Sequence record: KR014248
Length of the DNA stretch: 64,000 nucleotides
Reading direction: 5' to 3' (one strand)
Source of the DNA: Escherichia phage vB_EcoM_AYO145A
The translations under genes were made by a program, and so were the position numbers. This document shows positions 1,390 through 6,760 of this stretch, one piece after another. The notes beneath the pieces were generated by a model. The model ran no database searches and had not been told where the DNA came from. It saw only the letters and a program-made list of their open reading frames with translations. Position 1 is the first letter of the stretch. Every line of letters starts with the position of its first letter.

Positions 1390-1428
1390 CTGTCACATCA
1401 AACAACAAATGAGAGAAGAGAGTAAAAT

Positions 1429-2844
1429 ATGAGCGAATTATTTAAACATGCGCACCTTCATGCAGGTCGAACTGAAAATGGTGCTGTAAACCATACTTCA
1501 TCAATGTCTGCTCTTGTAGACTTTTACAAAGCTGCTGGTTCTAGCCGTAGCAATGTAGGAATCTTACCAGACCTGTTCTACAAAGCTTTGCGTGAGGATG
1601 TTGATGTTGCAGTTCGTATTTTGCTTCATATGCGAGATGTACGAGAAGGTATGGGTGAGCGTAAAGCTTTCCGAACTGTTTTACTTCAAGCGATTGAAGA
1701 TAAAGTTTTAGAGCCTACGCAGGTTCTTCGCATTATGGATAAGATTGCAGAGCTTGGTCGTTTTGATGACTTCAAAATCTTCGTGGGTACTCGTTTCGAG
1801 ACAGATGCCTTCAAACATTTAGAAGCAGCATTACTAGACCCTGCAACAGCAGGTTTGGCAGCTAAGTGGTTACCACGAGTCAAACCACGTCATAAGCAGT
1901 TTGTAAAACGTTTCTGCAAGTTTGCAAACTTGAGTGAGAAAGAGTACCGCACACTGTTGTCTGCACTATCTGATACAGTTGAACAAAAAATCTCTGCTAA
2001 TGAGTTTGGTAAGATTGACTACAGTAAGATTCCTTCACTTGCTGCTGCACGTTACCAAAAACTCTTTAACCGTAAAGATGGAGAACGCTACAAAGCTTAC
2101 ATCGAGTCACTCTCAAAAGGTGAGGCCAAGATTAACGCTGGTGCTGTTTACCCATACGATGTGATTAAATCTATCAAGTATGGTAATGCAGATGTTGCTA
2201 ATGAGCAGTGGAAAGCACTACCAAACTGGATGGTAGAAGGTGAAAACATCCTGTGTATGACTGATGTTTCAAGCTCAATGTCTTGGGTGAATCTTGGTTC
2301 AATCACTGCCCTTGATATTGGTGTATCCCTTGCCTTGTATGTAGCAGAACGCAATACAGGTTGTTTTAAGAATGAGTTAATGGTTTATTCAACAAACCCT
2401 CATTTCATCGAATTGAGTGGTGATTTACGAAACCGTCATCGTCAGATAATGCGTCATGTTGAATATGGCTCAACTAACTTACAAGCAGCTTTTGACCGTA
2501 TTCTTGAAATAGGCAAGAGAAACAACTTGACTCAGAAAGATATGCCAAGTAAGCTTATTATCTTCTCTGATATGGAGTTCAATCAGGTTGATGGAGCTAA
2601 CGGTCGTACAAACTTTGAAGCAATTCAGAGTAAGTACAAAAAAGCTGGATATGAGATGCCACAACTGGTATTCTGGTACTTAGCAAACCGTAATGGTACT
2701 TGCGAAGTATCTGTTAAGGATAATGGTGTAGCAATGGTATCAGGGTTCTCTCCAGCCACTTTAAAAGCTCTGCTTGGTGGTGAGAAGTTTGACCCAATCA
2801 GCGTAATGCTCAAAGCAGTAATGATTGACCGTTATATCTGGTAA
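1429..2844 (+). CDS. Ro60-like protein: TROVE/DUF2828-like N-terminal region plus C-terminal vWA domain with MIDAS motif
   Basis: 471 aa. MIDAS DxSxS is present (CMTDVSSSM). The blocks DVSSSM, GSTN, IIFSDME, KYKKAGYEMPQLVFW and MVSGFSP occur in the same order as the Ro60 vWA blocks DVSASM, GGTD, IVFTDNE, YRKKMDIPAKLIV and DMCGFD. The N-terminal TENGAV...LVDFY resembles the DUF2828 signature. Confidence 0.65.
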   Translation: MSELFKHAHLHAGRTENGAVNHTSSMSALVDFYKAAGSSRSNVGILPDLFYKALREDVDVAVRILLHMRDVREGMGERKAFRTVLLQAIEDKVLEPTQVLRIMDKIAELGRFDDFKIFVGTRFETDAFKHLEAALLDPATAGLAAKWLPRVKPRHKQFVKRFCKFANLSEKEYRTLLSALSDTVEQKISANEFGKIDYSKIPSLAAARYQKLFNRKDGERYKAYIESLSKGEAKINAGAVYPYDVIKSIKYGNADVANEQWKALPNWMVEGENILCMTDVSSSMSWVNLGSITALDIGVSLALYVAERNTGCFKNELMVYSTNPHFIELSGDLRNRHRQIMRHVEYGSTNLQAAFDRILEIGKRNNLTQKDMPSKLIIFSDMEFNQVDGANGRTNFEAIQSKYKKAGYEMPQLVFWYLANRNGTCEVSVKDNGVAMVSGFSPATLKALLGGEKFDPISVMLKAVMIDRYIW

Positions 2845-2862
2845 AAAGTTTTAAAAAGGGTA

Positions 2863-2891
2863 TTGACAATGTGTTTGATACCCTTTAATAT
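2863..2891 (+). promoter_or_regulatory. sigma70-like promoter, first of two ahead of the tRNA array
   Basis: TTGACA at 2863-2868, a 17-nt spacer, TAATAT at 2886-2891. Preceded by TTTTAAAAAGGG. Confidence 0.65.
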
Positions 2892-2953
2892 GTTCTACAT
2901 AGAAACAAAATGAGAGCTTTTCTAAGATACTGAAAAATATTTTAAAAAAGTTC

Positions 2954-2983
2954 TTGACAACCACTAAAAAATAATGTTAAAGT
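2954..2983 (+). promoter_or_regulatory. sigma70-like promoter, second ahead of the tRNA array
   Basis: TTGACA at 2954-2959, an 18-nt spacer, TAAAGT at 2978-2983. tRNA-Pro starts at 3010. Confidence 0.6.
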
Positions 2984-3009
2984 GGTTACATAGAGTTTGA
3001 AAAGTTTAT

Positions 3010-3086
3010 CTCTGTTTAGCTCAGCTTGGTAGAGCGTTCCGTTTGGGGCGGTAAGGCCGGAGGTTCAAGTCCTCCAACAGAGACCA
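3010..3086 (+). tRNA. tRNA-Pro (anticodon TGG)
   Basis: Cloverleaf folded by eye. Acceptor CTCTGTT/AACAGAG, D-stem GCTC/GAGC, anticodon loop TTTGGGG, T-arm GGAGGTTCAAGTCCTCC. CCA is encoded. Confidence 0.9.
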
Positions 3087-3093
3087 AATTAAT

Positions 3094-3171
3094 GTTCCAG
3101 TAGACAAAATGGTAAAGTCACCACTCTTTCAAAGTGGATATTTGAGGGTTCAAATCCCTTCTGGAACGCCA
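3094..3171 (+). tRNA. tRNA-Glu (TTC)
   Basis: Acceptor GTTCCAG/CTGGAAC, anticodon stem-loop CCACT-CTTTCAA-AGTGG, T-loop TTCAAAT. CCA is encoded. Confidence 0.88.
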
Positions 3172-3178
3172 GTTTTGA

Positions 3179-3251
3179 CAGAAGACCAATTACAGCAAAC
3201 TTAATCTTATTCATCTGACACGAAATCGGACAAAGAAGAGATTTGGTCTGG
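3179..3251 (+). ncRNA. Y-RNA-like small RNA YL1 (conserved-clamp family, no tRNA module)
   Basis: 5' CAGAAGACC (3179-3187) and 3' GGTCTGG (3245-3251). Helix AGACCAA/TTGGTCT, with the conserved 5' extension TTACAGCAAA. Lies between tRNA-Glu and tRNA(CAT), 7-11 nt from each. Confidence 0.55.
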
Positions 3252-3262
3252 TCATTAAGAAT

Positions 3263-3339
3263 TGCGGGTATAGAGAAAGGGCGTCTCACATGTCTCATTA
3301 GCATGGTATCGGCAGGTTCGACTCCTGCACCCGCCTCCA
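3263..3339 (+). tRNA. tRNA with CAT anticodon (Met or Ile2); acceptor register uncertain
   Basis: D-stem GAGA/TCTC, anticodon stem-loop CATGT-CTCATTA-GCATG, T-arm GCAGGTTCGACTCCTGC, 3' ACCCGCC-T-CCA. The best acceptor pairing leaves a 1:72 T-C mismatch. Confidence 0.75.
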
Positions 3340-3345
3340 ATTTTG

Positions 3346-3405
3346 CAGAAGACCGTATGCAGCAATAAACTACTTTTTGCGGATAAAAGAAAAAACACGG
3401 TCTGG
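3346..3405 (+). ncRNA. Y-RNA-like small RNA YL2
   Basis: 5' CAGAAGACC (3346-3354) and 3' GGTCTGG (3399-3405). Helix AGACCGT/ACGGTCT covaries relative to YL1. Motif TGCAGCAA. Lies between tRNA(CAT) and tRNA-Asn. Confidence 0.55.
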
Positions 3406-3416
3406 CAATGTATTAA

Positions 3417-3493
3417 GGTTAGGAAGCACATAAGGTATGTGCGGTCGCCTGTTAAGCGAATGGCACAGGGTTCGAATCCCTGACTAACCGCCA
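3417..3493 (+). tRNA. tRNA-Asn (GTT)
   Basis: Acceptor GGTTAGG/ACTAACC (7:66 mismatch), D-stem GCAC/GTGC, anticodon loop CTGTTAA, T-arm CAGGGTTCGAATCCCTG. CCA is encoded. Confidence 0.85.
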
Positions 3494-3502
3494 AATTTAA
3501 AT

Positions 3503-3590
3503 GTGTCGTTATCCCGTAGATGGTAGCGGTGGGGACTGTAAATCCCTTGTCATTGAGACTCGGTAGGTTCGACTCCTACACGGCACACCA
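3503..3590 (+). tRNA. tRNA-Tyr (GTA), type II
   Basis: Acceptor GTGTCGT/ACGGCAC, anticodon stem-loop GGGGA-CTGTAAA-TCCCT, long variable arm, T-arm GTAGGTTCGACTCCTAC. CCA is encoded. Confidence 0.88.
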
Positions 3591-3596
3591 AATAAA

Positions 3597-3674
3597 GGTT
3601 ATGTAGTTTAATCTGGTTAAAATACTCCCCTGTCACGGGAGATGATGAGGGTTCAAATCCCTTCGTAACCGCCA
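3597..3674 (+). tRNA. tRNA-Asp (GTC)
   Basis: Acceptor GGTTATG/CGTAACC, anticodon stem-loop CTCCC-CTGTCAC-GGGAG, T-arm GAGGGTTCAAATCCCTT. CCA is encoded. Confidence 0.88.
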
Positions 3675-3728
3675 AATTATAATAAGTATTCCAAGATGAT
3701 GTTTTGAGAGGGCTATTTAGCCCCTCCC

Positions 3729-3756
3729 TTAAAGAGTTCTTACGAGTATTCTTTAA
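3729..3756 (+). repeat. conserved-loop hairpin H1 (family of 3-4 in the tRNA array)
   Basis: Stem TTAAAGA/TCTTTAA, loop GTTCTTACGAGTAT. Ends 5 nt before YL3. Confidence 0.6.
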
Positions 3757-3761
3757 AGGAG

Positions 3762-3838
3762 CAGAAGACCAAATTCAGCAAGTACGTATGATATTTTCAA
3801 GCCAATTTAATTTTGAAAAAATTTAAAACTTGGTCTGG
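3762..3838 (+). ncRNA. Y-RNA-like small RNA YL3
   Basis: 5' CAGAAGACC (3762-3770) and 3' GGTCTGG (3832-3838). Helix AGACCAA/TTGGTCT, motif TTCAGCAA, internal hairpin TTTTCAA/TTGAAAA. Confidence 0.55.
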
Positions 3839-3851
3839 CTCAACAAATTTA

Positions 3852-3983
3852 CAGAAGACCGTTTACAGCAAAACTTAAACAATCTATTTCTCCGGTAAAG
3901 AAAAGGCGAAGGTTCGATTCCTTCACTCGGCAGATGTCGAGTTGGTGTAATGGTAGCACTTAAGATGATAAACAACGGTCTGG
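3852..3983 (+). ncRNA. Y-RNA-like small RNA YL4 with a circularly permuted tRNA-like module (YrlA-like architecture)
   Basis: Clamp CAGAAGACC (3852-3860) and GGTCTGG (3977-3983). Helix AGACCGTT/AACGGTCT, then CTTAA (3874-78)/TTAAG (3960-64). T-arm GAAGG-TTCGATT-CCTTC (3908-24). Acceptor 3' strand ACTCGGC (3925-31), 4-nt AGAT link, acceptor 5' strand GTCGAGT (3936-42). D-arm GTGT-AATGGTA-GCAC (3945-59). Confidence 0.65.
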
Positions 3984-3984
3984 T

Positions 3985-4128
3985 AATTATCTTTGTAGAT
4001 AAGTTATTAAGCTTACCTGTGAGTATGCGACCACAAAGGGTGAAAGGGTAAATTCTAGATTTAAACCCAACAAGGCACATCGCTACAGACCTTAAGCAAG
4101 TCTGGGTAGCTTATCTACAAAGATAATT
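3985..4128 (+). ncRNA. structured element closed by a 19-bp perfect stem
   Basis: AATTATCTTTGTAGATAAG (3985-4003) pairs perfectly with CTTATCTACAAAGATAATT (4110-4128). The interior contains hairpin GCTACAGAC-CTTAAGCAA-GTCTGGGTAGC, which echoes the YL clamp. Confidence 0.45.
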
Positions 4129-4133
4129 TTAAT

Positions 4134-4209
4134 GGAAGTGTAGCAGAATGGTGATGCGGCAGACTTTTAATCTGACAGGCGATGGGTTCGAATCCCTCCA
4201 CTTCTACCA
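4134..4209 (+). tRNA. tRNA-Lys (TTT)
   Basis: Acceptor GGAAGTG/CACTTCT, anticodon loop CTTTTAA, T-loop TTCGAAT with an irregular T-stem (GATGGG/CCCTCC). CCA is encoded. Confidence 0.8.
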
Positions 4210-4213
4210 ATAT

Positions 4214-4290
4214 GGTTCAGTCGCAGATAAGGTAATGCAGGGGTCTCATAAGCCCTATGAATGTGGGTTCGATTCCCATCTGAACCTCCA
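4214..4290 (+). tRNA. tRNA with CAT anticodon (Met or Ile2)
   Basis: Acceptor GGTTCAG/CTGAACC, anticodon stem-loop GGGGT-CTCATAA-GCCCT, T-arm GTGGGTTCGATTCCCAT. CCA is encoded. Confidence 0.85.
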
Positions 4291-4291
4291 A

Positions 4292-4367
4292 GCTGGTATA
4301 GTTAAGAAGGTTATAACACTCCCCTGATAAGGGAACATCGGTGGTTCGATTCCACCTACCAGTACCA
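4292..4367 (+). tRNA. tRNA-Ile (GAT)
   Basis: Acceptor GCTGGTA/TACCAGT, anticodon loop CTGATAA, T-arm GGTGGTTCGATTCCACC. CCA is encoded. Confidence 0.88.
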
Positions 4368-4382
4368 ATTTCAATAAAGTTG

Positions 4383-4411
4383 TTGACATTGAGATGTGAC
4401 TACTTTATAGT
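4383..4411 (+). promoter_or_regulatory. consensus-like internal promoter within the tRNA array
   Basis: TTGACA at 4383-4388, a 17-nt spacer, TATAGT at 4406-4411. Confidence 0.7.
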
Positions 4412-4577
4412 AACCTTAGTTTTCGTTGCGTAGCGTCTATTTTGCAAATTTAAAATAAATGCAAACGACAATGTTTTTCTGGCAGTAGCTTGATAGGCTA
4501 AACACCAGTGAGGTCTTCCAATCCCTCATCAAAGAATTTGGCGTACTCGCCCACGGTATGATTAATAAGGTGGGCAT

Positions 4578-4608
4578 CTTTAAGGGCTTTCTAAGAGAGT
4601 CTTTAAAG
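4578..4608 (+). repeat. conserved-loop hairpin H2
   Basis: Stem CTTTAAGGG/TCTTTAAAG (with G-T wobbles), loop CTTTCTAAGAGAG. Ends 7 nt before the atypical tRNA(TCT). Confidence 0.55.
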
Positions 4609-4615
4609 ATAATTA

Positions 4616-4697
4616 CGGGGCGTATCTCAGCGGTCTTCTAAACCGCCGTTAACCGAGTAAGTGGAGTATGCGGGTTCGAGTCCTGCCGCCTCGACCA
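4616..4697 (+). tRNA. atypical tRNA-like gene, anticodon TCT (Arg), no recognisable D-arm
   Basis: Acceptor CGGGGCG/CGCCTCG, perfect anticodon stem-loop GCGGT-CTTCTAA-ACCGC, T-arm GCGGGTTCGAGTCCTGC. CCA is encoded. Only 7 nt lie between the acceptor and anticodon stems, and the variable region is 23 nt. Confidence 0.5.
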
Positions 4698-5023: not shown

Positions 5024-5280
5024 CCTAATAAGATTTAAAGCCAAGCTTCATTCGGATGTTGCTTTGGTATACCGCGTGTATTGTTGTACGCACTGATAAA
5101 GCACCTAGTAGGTGTCACGGAGAAGAGATAATATCAAGCTCTCCAAAGGTTCTAGTCACCGGATTAAACAAGACTATGCAAAGACCTTTTTAGGTCTTTT
5201 TAGAGGGCTTCTAAGGTTATTACAGCTTGTTGTGGAACCTTGTTGCTTAGGTTCTTAGAAGTTCTCTAAAAAGACTTAAT

Positions 5281-5358
5281 GGGAGATTGACGGTAATTGG
5301 TAAACCTATCTCGCTTAGAACGAGATGTTTGAGGGTTCGAATCCCTTGTCTCCTACCA
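5281..5358 (+). tRNA. tRNA with TAG anticodon (Leu), short variable region
   Basis: Acceptor GGGAGAT/GTCTCCT, anticodon stem-loop TCTCG-CTTAGAA-CGAGA, T-arm GAGGGTTCGAATCCCTT, A73, CCA. At 78 nt it lacks a type II long arm. Confidence 0.75.
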
Positions 5359-6037: not shown

Positions 6038-6595
6038 ATGAGATATTTGAAGTATGCTTCATGGATTTTCTTAGCTTTGTTAGAGCCATTTGCAGCAATC
6101 TTAGCAGTTATCTTAGCACCTTTCGTAGTTCCATTCTACAGTGAGAAGAAAGGCCACTTACCTTTCGGATTTAGATGGATGGAGACCTATGACAACCCGA
6201 TTGATGGTGATGAAGGCCACGTTAAAAGATGGGCTAAGATTAGAAAGATTGGTAAGCTCGGTGTTTATATGCAGAGAGTTGGATGGCTCTGGAGAAACAA
6301 AGCTTATAACTTCTCTTACCATGTATTAGGAAGAGATGTAAAAGATGTTACTAAGTGGAAAGGTAATATCAACGTAAGTTCTAACCCTGAAGATAATCAG
6401 ACAGGTTATCTCCTAATGTGGAACAGTAATGCTTGGGGATTATTTGCTTTTATCCCATCTATTAAAGTCTTTGGTAAACAATTCTACTGGAGAATTTATG
6501 TTGGGTGGAAACTAAAAAGTGTTGTCCCAGAAGAAAGAGCATTCTCAAGGGAAAGAGTTATGTTGGCATTCTTTATTCATCCACTAAGAAAATAA
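6038..6595 (+). CDS. hypothetical membrane protein embedded in the tRNA array
   Basis: 185-aa ORF with AAAGAGG RBS. The N-terminus is hydrophobic (WIFLALLEPFAAILAVILAPFVVPF). Confidence 0.7.
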   Translation: MRYLKYASWIFLALLEPFAAILAVILAPFVVPFYSEKKGHLPFGFRWMETYDNPIDGDEGHVKRWAKIRKIGKLGVYMQRVGWLWRNKAYNFSYHVLGRDVKDVTKWKGNINVSSNPEDNQTGYLLMWNSNAWGLFAFIPSIKVFGKQFYWRIYVGWKLKSVVPEERAFSRERVMLAFFIHPLRK

Positions 6596-6603
6596 AGATT
6601 TAA

Positions 6604-6679
6604 AGGGGATTAGTTTACAAGGTTAAAACCTCGGTCTTTGAAATCGAAGAAGTTGGTTCAATTCCAACATCCCCCGCCA
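6604..6679 (+). tRNA. tRNA-Gln (TTG)
   Basis: Acceptor AGGGGAT/ATCCCCC (1:72 A-C mismatch), anticodon stem-loop TCGGT-CTTTGAA-ATCGA, T-arm GTTGGTTCAATTCCAAC. CCA is encoded. Confidence 0.82.
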
Positions 6680-6681
6680 AT

Positions 6682-6760
6682 GCTCCATTACTCCAATTGG
6701 CAGAGAGGCCAGACTTAAAATCTGTGTTATGTATCGGTTCGAATCCGATATGGAGTACCA
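6682..6760 (+). tRNA. tRNA with TAA anticodon (Leu), short variable region
   Basis: Acceptor GCTCCAT/ATGGAGT, D-loop CCAATTGGCAGAG, anticodon loop CTTAAAA, T-arm ATCGGTTCGAATCCGAT, A73, CCA. 79 nt. Confidence 0.78.

Follow-up and report, generated by a model that had tools for sequence, protein, structure and literature searches.

The window analysed here is a stretch of 64,000 nucleotides (nt) of DNA from Escherichia phage vB_EcoM_AYO145A (sequence record KR014248), a Felix O1-like myovirus (Felixounavirus) that shares 97.9% identity with Escherichia phage EcoM2 across positions 1400–4400. A gene for a Ro-like protein of 471 amino acids (aa; 1429..2844, + strand) precedes an array of transfer RNA (tRNA) genes, 25 of which were counted in the window. 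The first block of this array, delimited with ARAGORN and Rfam (3010..4367, + strand), encodes tRNAs for Pro, Glu, Met, Asn, Tyr, Asp, Lys, Met, and Ile, and it contains four repeated RNA elements, YL1 to YL4, which are the subject of this report together with the wider family to which they belong and with the Ro-like protein as their presumed partner.

The elements are marked by the sequence CAGAAGACC, which occurs five times in the window against 0.51 expected; four of these occurrences start on the + strand at 3179, 3346, 3762, and 3852. They are followed by TTA, ATG, ATT, and TTA, respectively, each joined to CAGCAA, and the closing GGTCTGG lies at 3245, 3399, 3832, and 3977. The four copies of this arrangement, described in the initial annotation, were confirmed, as were the compensatory inner pairs AGACCAA/TTGGTCT, AGACCGT/ACGGTCT, and AGACCGTT/AACGGTCT. 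RNAfold predicted the same closing architecture in all four YLs, consisting of an outer helix of 4 base pairs (bp), an asymmetric internal loop, and an inner helix of 7–8 bp. The only unpaired residues of this clamp are AGA on the 5' side and one G on the 3' side. The outer CAGA and GG had been thought unable to pair; this holds for the AGA and one G, whereas the C pairs with the second G and opens a covarying outer helix. The latter pairs in every copy with a different sequence (UGAC/GUCA, UUGC/GCAA, GAGC/GCUC, and UUAC/GUAA). All four elements are built from a stem of 7–8 bp, CAGCAA behind a linker of 3 nt, a variable cargo, and the 3' strand of the stem with an unpaired G after it.

All four elements lie on the + strand. 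YL1 (3176..3254), located 5 nt past tRNA-Glu and 8 nt ahead of tRNA-Met, has its outer helix at 3176–3179/3251–3254, AGA 3180–3182 opposite G3250, and its inner helix at 3183–3189/3243–3249; TTA and CAGCAA (3190–3198) lead into a small hairpin cargo. YL2 (3343..3408), with tRNA-Met on one side and tRNA-Asn on the other, is closed by 3343–3346/3405–3408, with AGA opposite G3404 and the inner helix at 3350–3356/3397–3403, and it likewise carries a small hairpin after ATG and CAGCAA (3357–3365). The corresponding helices of YL3 (3759..3841) are 3759–3762/3838–3841 and 3766–3772/3830–3836, with AGA opposite G3837, and ATT and CAGCAA (3773–3781) are followed by an 8-bp A/U hairpin. YL4 (3849..3986) has its outer helix at 3849–3852/3983–3986, AGA opposite G3982, the inner helix at 3856–3863/3974–3981, and TTA with CAGCAA.

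To search for such elements, we used a strict descriptor that required a 7-bp helix with at most one G-U pair, CAGCAA behind a linker of 3 nt, and a G following the 3' strand. In the window, it matched exactly the four YL sites on the + strand and nothing on the − strand, while dinucleotide-shuffled versions of the window gave a mean of 0.15 matches and a maximum of 2 (300 shuffles). YL1 to YL4 are all retained in Mooglevirus, Suspvirus, and Ounavirinae from IMG/VR, and YL3 with YL4 matched 246 phage records, in which the region is unannotated or labelled "hypothetical protein". An alignment of 34 distinct clamp sequences from Ounavirinae-like phages, including phages whose protein is only 55–63% identical, disclosed 99.3% pairing in the outer helix, which had not been used in the selection, with 3 of 4 pairs covarying, and 100% pairing in the inner helix, with 6 of 7 pairs covarying. 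None of 500 shuffles reached these values, and slid registers were only 20–43% paired. The description of the clamp CAGAAGACC/GGTCTGG as invariant was upheld within the Ounavirinae-like phages only; distant relatives carry other stems (AGACUAU/GUAGUCU, AGUGUCU/GGACACU, and GGACUGU/ACAGUCC) and have AUA, AAA, or ACA in place of AGA, so the invariant clamp is lineage-specific. A family-wide test of the outer helix was negative outside Ounavirinae, and this helix is confined to Ounavirinae-like phages.

Related elements were first recognised beside the DUF2828 gene and on its strand, by eye and then with the descriptor, in six further phages: Klebsiella phage KP13-16 (at least five copies), Aeromonas phage LAh_6 (at least eight), Campylobacter phage F368 (two), mycobacteriophage Finnry (three), Listeria phage LMSP-25 (three), and Bacillus phage PJN02 (five). 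Among 90 phage or IMG/VR loci, 71 were positive, with 157 matches on the gene strand and 30 on the opposite one; among 80 loci from bacterial and archaeal genomes, 69 were positive, with 161 and 24 matches, respectively. The core signature was present on the gene strand at 140 of 170 unrelated DUF2828 loci. When only perfect Watson-Crick elements with the 3' G were counted, the gene strand of 174 loci held 176 distinct elements, whereas the opposite strand had 0. Of 262 elements, 154 lay no more than 500 nt from the gene, 115 on its upstream side and 39 on its downstream side. Re-pairing the CAGCAA seeds with the downstream sequence of other seeds gave 34 expected against 155 observed on the gene strand, and 26 expected against 27 observed on the opposite strand. 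The tRNA region of phage T5 (20 kb, with no DUF2828 gene), used as a negative control, contained 0 elements.

The linkage was also found in the converse direction. A search of IMG/VR that was blind to the protein, using the pattern AAGG-N5-TACAGCAA-N24-54-CCTGT, returned 67 matches with a complementary helix (chance about 2%) and 60 without one. An open reading frame (ORF) with DUF2828 was located in the retrieved stretch for 29 of the 67 helix-complementary matches versus 2 of the 60 non-complementary ones. In 28 of these 29 cases the match was on the strand of the gene, typically 20–700 nt away, and only four gene-less matches had at least 3 kb of sequence on both sides. The RNA structure family, its covariation, and its strand-specific linkage to the gene are direct observations. 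The family consensus reads 5' A-[A-G-R-N4]-N-U-A-CAGCAA ... [N4-Y-C-U]-G-U 3', in which hardly any variation is seen in the G-C pair 2, in CAGCAA, or in the 3' G, and the remaining pairs covary freely; 55 copies from outside Ounavirinae have these three features without exception, and 6 of their 7 pairs covary. Determinants shared by the whole family are CAGCAA, the second, G-C pair, and the 3' G. A variant clamp, with CAGCUA substituting for CAGCAA, was observed at 1196–1278 of a contig from a Micavibrio metagenome-assembled genome (MAG; L130), close to a freshwater-1 RNA, which means that the descriptor undercounts the family.

The product of ORF 1429–2844 contains DUF2828 (Pfam, 9.6e-29) and DUF7788/von Willebrand factor A (vWA) domains (DUF7788, 2e-43; VWA_2, weak) with an intact MIDAS motif (metal ion-dependent adhesion site), and it falls in PHROG 850, "RNA-binding protein". 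Pfam gave no TROVE match for this product, phmmer found no sequence-level relative in the PDB, and PADLOC returned no match. An AlphaFold2 model built from 34 homologues had a predicted local distance difference test (pLDDT) score of 87.6 and a predicted template modelling (pTM) score of 0.88. Superposition with Foldseek against the PDB revealed that the 11 best matches were all Ro60, over the full length (E 4e-8 to 1e-6, TM score 0.47–0.66), from Thermus phage phiLo, Xenopus, human, and Deinococcus, at 10–16% identity. In this model the protein shows the Ro60 fold. The MIDAS residues D279-x-S281-x-S283, T349, and D381 are invariant across the 34 homologues. Ro60 proteins of the TROVE family are marked by a ring of HEAT repeats joined to a vWA domain with a MIDAS, and by the Pfam TROVE signature; the modelled fold and the MIDAS residues of the window protein agree with this, and its sequence does not carry the signature.

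A similar protein has been reported from phage Bas63, where gp130 resembles Ro60, its gene sits directly upstream of tRNA genes, deletion of g130 sensitises the phage to the Ppl defence system, and the authors speculated that "some tRNA genes are possibly Y RNAs" (preprint, PMC11482910). The window ORF 1429–2844 appears to be orthologous to Bas63 g130. Homologues of this ORF occur in 708 phage records, from phages of Proteobacteria, Firmicutes, Actinobacteria, and Campylobacterota, and our searches retrieved more than 2,800 protein clusters with DUF2828, a domain that has also been reported from mimivirus-like sequences and from poplar. On a giant-virus MAG contig (L225), a Pfam-confirmed DUF2828/DUF7788 ORF is followed by four tandem elements of 43–47 nt. 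In a protein search seeded with the giant-virus-type homologue, the entries retrieved were metagenomic or viral only, and none of the top 120 was a named protein of an amoeba. Directly 5' of the Ro-like gene, the window has an ORF with DUF5681 (976–1347, + strand; 119–123 aa; PHROG 4114, function unknown). This ORF was always in that position in Ounavirinae-like phages (L001–L003, L091–L094) and may be an operon partner of the Ro-like gene.

The cargo of the elements is modular and comprises mini-hairpins, permuted tRNA-like modules of the YrlA type, and whole tRNAs. Short family members (46–70 nt) hold a small A/U-rich hairpin, while a T loop, a closed acceptor stem, and a D arm were present in 17 of 44 distinct long members. 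YL4 belongs to the latter; its cargo consists of a V-like hairpin (3887–3903), a T arm (3908–3924, GAAGG-TTCGATT-CCTTC), a closed acceptor-like stem (3925–3942), and a D-arm-like hairpin (3944–3960), all on the + strand. Seven Ounavirinae retain this module, and three pairs of its acceptor-like stem covary among them. YL4 gave a partial 22-bit match to the Rfam tRNA model (RF00005) at 3875–3925, below the tRNA cut-off of 29 bits, and neither ARAGORN nor RF00005 at 29 bits or more called any YL a tRNA. An element from Finnry (L008) matches positions 23–89 of the Rfam YrlA model (39.5 bits, E 2e-7), a range that covers the tRNA-like core but leaves out the Rsr-binding stem, and a gammaproteobacterial element (L111) scores 37.7 bits over the whole YrlA model.

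At Clostridia-type loci, some clamps enclose a complete, unpermuted tRNA (L174, 4665–4773; L139, 4537–4644), and the enclosed tRNAs score 45.7 and 41.9 bits with the Rfam tRNA model; they are tRNAs with a Ro-like "handle". Two non-tRNA cargos also recur, a block of about 40 nt ending in ...aacctttctggaggggaaagcaaaaactcgccaaaac (L017, L018, L023, L027, and L039) and modules of about 200 nt in AGAGTGR...YCACTCT clamps (L018, L021, L025, L027, and L084).

Between the Ro-like gene and the first tRNA are two sigma-70-like promoter matches on the + strand, TTGACA-17-TAATAT (2863–2891) and TTGACA-18-TAAAGT with a TG (2954–2983), both of which are consensus matches only. The next strong promoter match is at 4383–4411, and no + strand terminator match was found between it and the two promoters. 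Judged by this sequence layout, the promoters at 2863..2983 are presumed to start a precursor that carries the tRNAs and the YLs and reaches about 4367. Small ORFs of the window overlap the elements (3089–3340, 3255–3494, and 3823–4080, all on the − strand), and elsewhere coding sequences annotated as "hypothetical protein" do the same, at 6520–6735 in L008 and 6358–6486 in L001, for example Finnry gp55 and HP1_22. These small reading frames are probably annotation artefacts.

We consider it probable that YL1 to YL4 are paralogous small noncoding RNAs of a large unannotated family, and that this family is the dedicated partner of DUF2828 Ro-like proteins. We infer for the YLs expression, processing, direct protein binding, and a function along the following lines. 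The YLs would be transcribed together with the tRNAs from the promoters just past the Ro-like gene, and the tRNA-processing machinery would cut them out and release them. The terminal stem, the single-stranded N-U-A-CAGCAA, and the unpaired 3' G would form a handle for the ring-shaped Ro-like protein, a recognition suggested by their strict co-occurrence and conservation. The variable interior would be a cargo that specifies what the particle does, with short hairpins in YL1 to YL3 and, in YL4, a tRNA mimic that could tether tRNA-directed enzymes or act as a decoy for them. Y RNAs equip Ro60 in this way. The likely role of such particles would be in RNA quality control, in repair, or in protection against host defences during infection.

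Several observations weigh against this assignment. The folding energies of single YL copies are ordinary (z = −1.0 to −1.6); the support comes from covariation and comparative genomics and not from thermodynamics. Because pairing is a criterion of the descriptor, the pairing percentage of the inner helix is circular, an objection that does not apply to the outer helix, to the strand bias, or to the gene linkage. A covariance model, R1, built from 55 trimmed clamps from outside Ounavirinae, scored 13.9 bits for YL1 and 12.9 bits for YL2 in the window (E about 1, amid noise) and was dropped. Its failure is explained by the low information content and the variable interior of the elements, and because R1 could not tell the YLs from background, detection depends on a descriptor of our own making. 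The explicit descriptor was used in its place with shuffle, strand, and permutation controls. Furthermore, single mismatches in the helices were G-U in 23 cases versus A-C in 12, which favours an RNA strand just modestly, the resemblance of the protein to Ro60 is at the level of the fold only, and a few elements have no DUF2828 gene within 3–4 kb. A relaxed descriptor (degenerate cores, linkers of 2–4 nt, one mismatch) was also tried; it gave hundreds of chance matches in the window and was unusable.

The initial annotation had likened the elements to the Ro-binding stem of Y RNAs, with the product of 1429..2844 as the partner. The predicted Ro60 fold, the same-strand gene linkage seen in both search directions, and the YL4 module support this proposal, although the YLs do not qualify as canonical Y RNA or YrlA. 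Canonical Y RNAs lie within 4 kb of the Ro gene on the same strand (PMC4201824). The YLs follow the Ro60-fold gene at 332–1005 nt downstream and share its strand, within this distance of about 4 kb, although the partner is Ro-like by fold and has no Pfam TROVE domain. A tRNA-like domain is present in YL4 (3908–3960). In contrast, the Rsr-binding motif GNCGAAN0-1G as defined previously (PMC4201824, PMC12135203), or its CGAA, is absent from the YLs, whose 5' strands read (C)AGAAGACCNN-NNN-CAGCAA, and no YL matched the Rfam YrlA or Y_RNA model at the gathering threshold (69 bits for YrlA) or at E <= 10. At gathering thresholds, Rfam placed no family on the elements in the window and 19 loci.

Like Ro60/Rsr with its Y RNAs (YrlA, RF02553, Chen et al. 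2014, PMC4201824; Ro60-Yrl1/2 of Thermus phage phiLo, PMC12135203), the system described here comprises a protein predicted to combine a ring and a vWA domain in a Ro60 fold, together with several paralogous small RNAs whose genes lie on the same strand no more than a few kb away; their conserved terminal stem is the presumed handle, with a variable module as effector. As with YrlA, at least one RNA per locus has a permuted tRNA-like domain with a T arm, a closed acceptor stem, and a D arm, and tRNAs and RNA ligases often adjoin (RtcB in L009, Rnl2 in L006). The two differ in that the partner is DUF2828/DUF7788 and not Pfam TROVE, with 10–16% identity to solved Ro60 proteins, and in that the handle consists of an A-G-R stem, NUA-CAGCAA, and a 3' G rather than the bulged helix with GNCGAA(N)G / GGUCCGA; this handle escapes the Rfam Y-RNA models.

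Four other explanations fit the data less well than a Ro/Y-type particle. It is unlikely that the elements are cis-acting leaders or operators, hairpins by which the DUF2828 protein autoregulates its own synthesis in the manner of ribosomal-protein leaders, with no stable trans-acting RNAs. Most elements outside Ounavirinae do lie directly upstream on the gene strand (the 115 of 262 within 500 nt), and some extend to the start codon (L006, L202). However, in this phage and at many other loci the gene comes first and the elements stand downstream of it, among tRNAs and with separate promoter matches in between, and they form tandem arrays of up to 8–9 copies with differing, elaborate cargo that includes tRNA mimics and whole tRNAs. 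Canonical Y RNAs have the same layout, within 4 kb and on the same strand (PMC4201824), and in Dictyostelium the look-alike Class I RNAs occur free and in abundance (PMC7919456). We give little credence to the notion that the elements merely punctuate the tRNA precursor, as spacers that guide RNase P, E, or III or protect ends and are then degraded. Elements flank DUF2828 genes that have no adjacent tRNA (Finnry, L008; giant virus, L225), the T5 tRNA region has none of them, and host-specific RNases do not explain a single-stranded CAGCAA and a 3' G that are invariant across phyla; such spacers would nevertheless suit the position of YL1 and YL2, 4–8 nt from mature tRNA ends, and the presence of other stable RNAs of unknown function in phage tRNA clusters (T5 annotation).

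The YLs could also be canonical Y RNAs (YrlA/YrlB) or decayed tRNA genes mistaken for a new family. The T arm, closed acceptor stem, and D arm of YL4 and the YrlA-model matches on related cargo point in this direction, but YL1 to YL3 are without a tRNA-like part, ARAGORN called none of the four a tRNA, the Rsr motif and any YrlA or Y_RNA match are missing as described above, and the L008 element aligns with YrlA outside the Ro-binding stem, all of which makes such a mistake very improbable. Finally, DNA-level repeats with no RNA function, such as protein-binding, recombination, or homing-endonuclease sites, are brought to mind by the insertions of HNH endonucleases in this region in some Felixounavirus genomes (H40, H41). 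That the elements are repeats of this kind is scarcely credible, given that the strand asymmetry is complete (176 vs. 0), that compensatory changes, G-U pairs included, keep the pairing, and that the stems are conserved while the interiors vary.

Returning to the proposed Ro/Y-type RNAs, one Rfam family stood out, the Class I RNA of Dictyostelium. Among 4227 Rfam models, RF01414 was the only one whose alignment spanned the elements from end to end, with scores short of the 41.5-bit gathering threshold. YL2 and YL4 scored 18.0 and 12.8 bits, five elements of an Aeromonas phage (L006) 22.7–29.8 bits, and an element of L130 28.1 bits; the alignments cover the full model, positions 1–56, on the + strand, at exactly the predicted coordinates. 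As described previously (PMC7919456), Class I RNAs are about 60 nt long, with a terminal stem that shows compensatory changes and an AA ahead of an invariant G; CCUUACAGCAA (11 nt) adjoins the 5' strand of the stem, the remainder varies, and the 3' end is a conserved CUGU. The same paper reports them as unique to Dictyostelia, with an unknown mechanism. They have been an orphan class since 2004.

The likeness to Class I RNA (RF01414; Kjellin et al. 2021, PMC7919456) extends to the length of about 42–65 nt, which matches that of the short family members, to the terminal stem with compensatory changes and with A's ahead of a fully conserved 5' G, and to the variable A/U-rich remainder; it holds in part for the single-stranded (C)CUUACAGCAA that is conserved beside the 5' strand of the stem and for the conserved 3' C-U-G-U. 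In the stem of our family, the G-C pair 2 is invariant, A occupies position 1 in 71% and position −1 in 64%, and 6 of 7 pairs covary. Set against CCUUACAGCAA, CAGCAA is invariant, the preceding U and A are present in 62% and 61%, the linker has one nucleotide fewer, and there is no CC; the motifs of YL1 to YL4 are, in order, UUACAGCAA, AUGCAGCAA, AUUCAGCAA, and UUACAGCAA. The 3' end of the family is ...CCU-G-U, with G in 78% and U in 48%, whereas the four YLs, as Ounavirinae copies generally, end in CUGG followed by the outer helix. Class I RNAs differ further in being eukaryotic, in having their own promoters, and in their known direct binder, the RNA recognition motif (RRM) protein Rnp1A. 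We put forward tentatively, with doubt slightly outweighing belief, that the viral and bacterial stem-CAGCAA-G RNAs and the Class I RNAs are one class, with a DUF2828 protein as the ancestral partner; they would then constitute a second cross-domain, virus-spread ribonucleoprotein of the Ro/Y type with interchangeable cargo that includes tRNA mimics.

Stable RNAs that are not tRNAs have precedents in phage tRNA clusters. The species 1 and species 2 RNAs of phage T4 are stable non-tRNA RNAs of this kind. In T5 (L175; AY543070, 30284–33083 and 40848–41566), nine non-tRNA RNAs are annotated, three of which are tRNA-like; most bear the label "stable RNA with unknown functions". The elements resemble the T4 and T5 RNAs (RNAI, RNAIII, RNA1, and RNA2 in T5), which are small, in part tRNA-like, co-transcribed and processed with tRNAs, and of unknown function. 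A difference is that both the stem-CAGCAA-G elements and a DUF2828 gene are missing from the T5 region, and no protein partner is known for the T4 and T5 RNAs.

In the literature on DUF2828, Ro-like phage proteins, phage YrlA, and UACAGCAA, we found no prior description of these RNAs, and within the literature and databases searched, the stem-CAGCAA-G RNAs are an undescribed variant of the Ro/Y ribonucleoprotein theme. If the proposed partnership is correct, DUF2828 proteins, now labelled just "RNA-binding protein", would gain a testable ligand, and some 240 Felix O1-like genomes would each acquire at least four RNA genes that are now unannotated, while several "hypothetical proteins" annotated over the elements would be explained away. 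Elements of the YL type would be specific candidates for the Y RNAs of Bas63 and for its anti-defence phenotype. They would also represent modular particles of the Ro type, in which one handle bears hairpins, permuted tRNA mimics, or whole tRNAs, and the function of Class I RNAs would become approachable through a bacterial or phage model with a candidate partner protein.

Other structured RNAs were observed near the YLs. The spacer between YL4 and tRNA-Lys (3984–4136, + strand) is predicted to form a fold of about 150 nt with a 24-bp closing stem and several internal hairpins (−48.3 kcal/mol, z = −5.2), and a comparable long inverted repeat was noticed by eye in the same place in Shigella phage Sf14 (L002, about 6613–6755). 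The CAGCAA signature is absent from this spacer, which is a candidate for a further unannotated structured RNA. The match at 4383–4411 (+ strand) is the strongest promoter match, and weak Rfam matches resembling transfer-messenger RNA (tmRNA) are located at 4309–4493 (29.2 bits) and 4425–4614 (16 bits), followed by a tRNA-like sequence at 4616–4694 (+ strand; Rfam, 31.7 bits) that ARAGORN did not call. Between tRNA-Ser and tRNA-Leu, a long hairpin (5186–5285, + strand) gave spurious matches to plant microRNAs (MIR473, 34.6 bits) and may be another structured spacer RNA.

Known RNA families were also found at related loci. The freshwater-1 RNA (RF02979, 82.7 bits) of L130, at 1007–1068, lies amid tRNAs and clamp elements upstream of the DUF2828 gene, and a drum RNA (RF02958, 50.2 bits) is part of the tRNA array of Listeria phage LMSP-25 (L009, 941–1039). 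A permuted tmRNA (98.9 bits) is located near the DUF2828 locus of a gammaproteobacterial contig (L115, 6027–6307).

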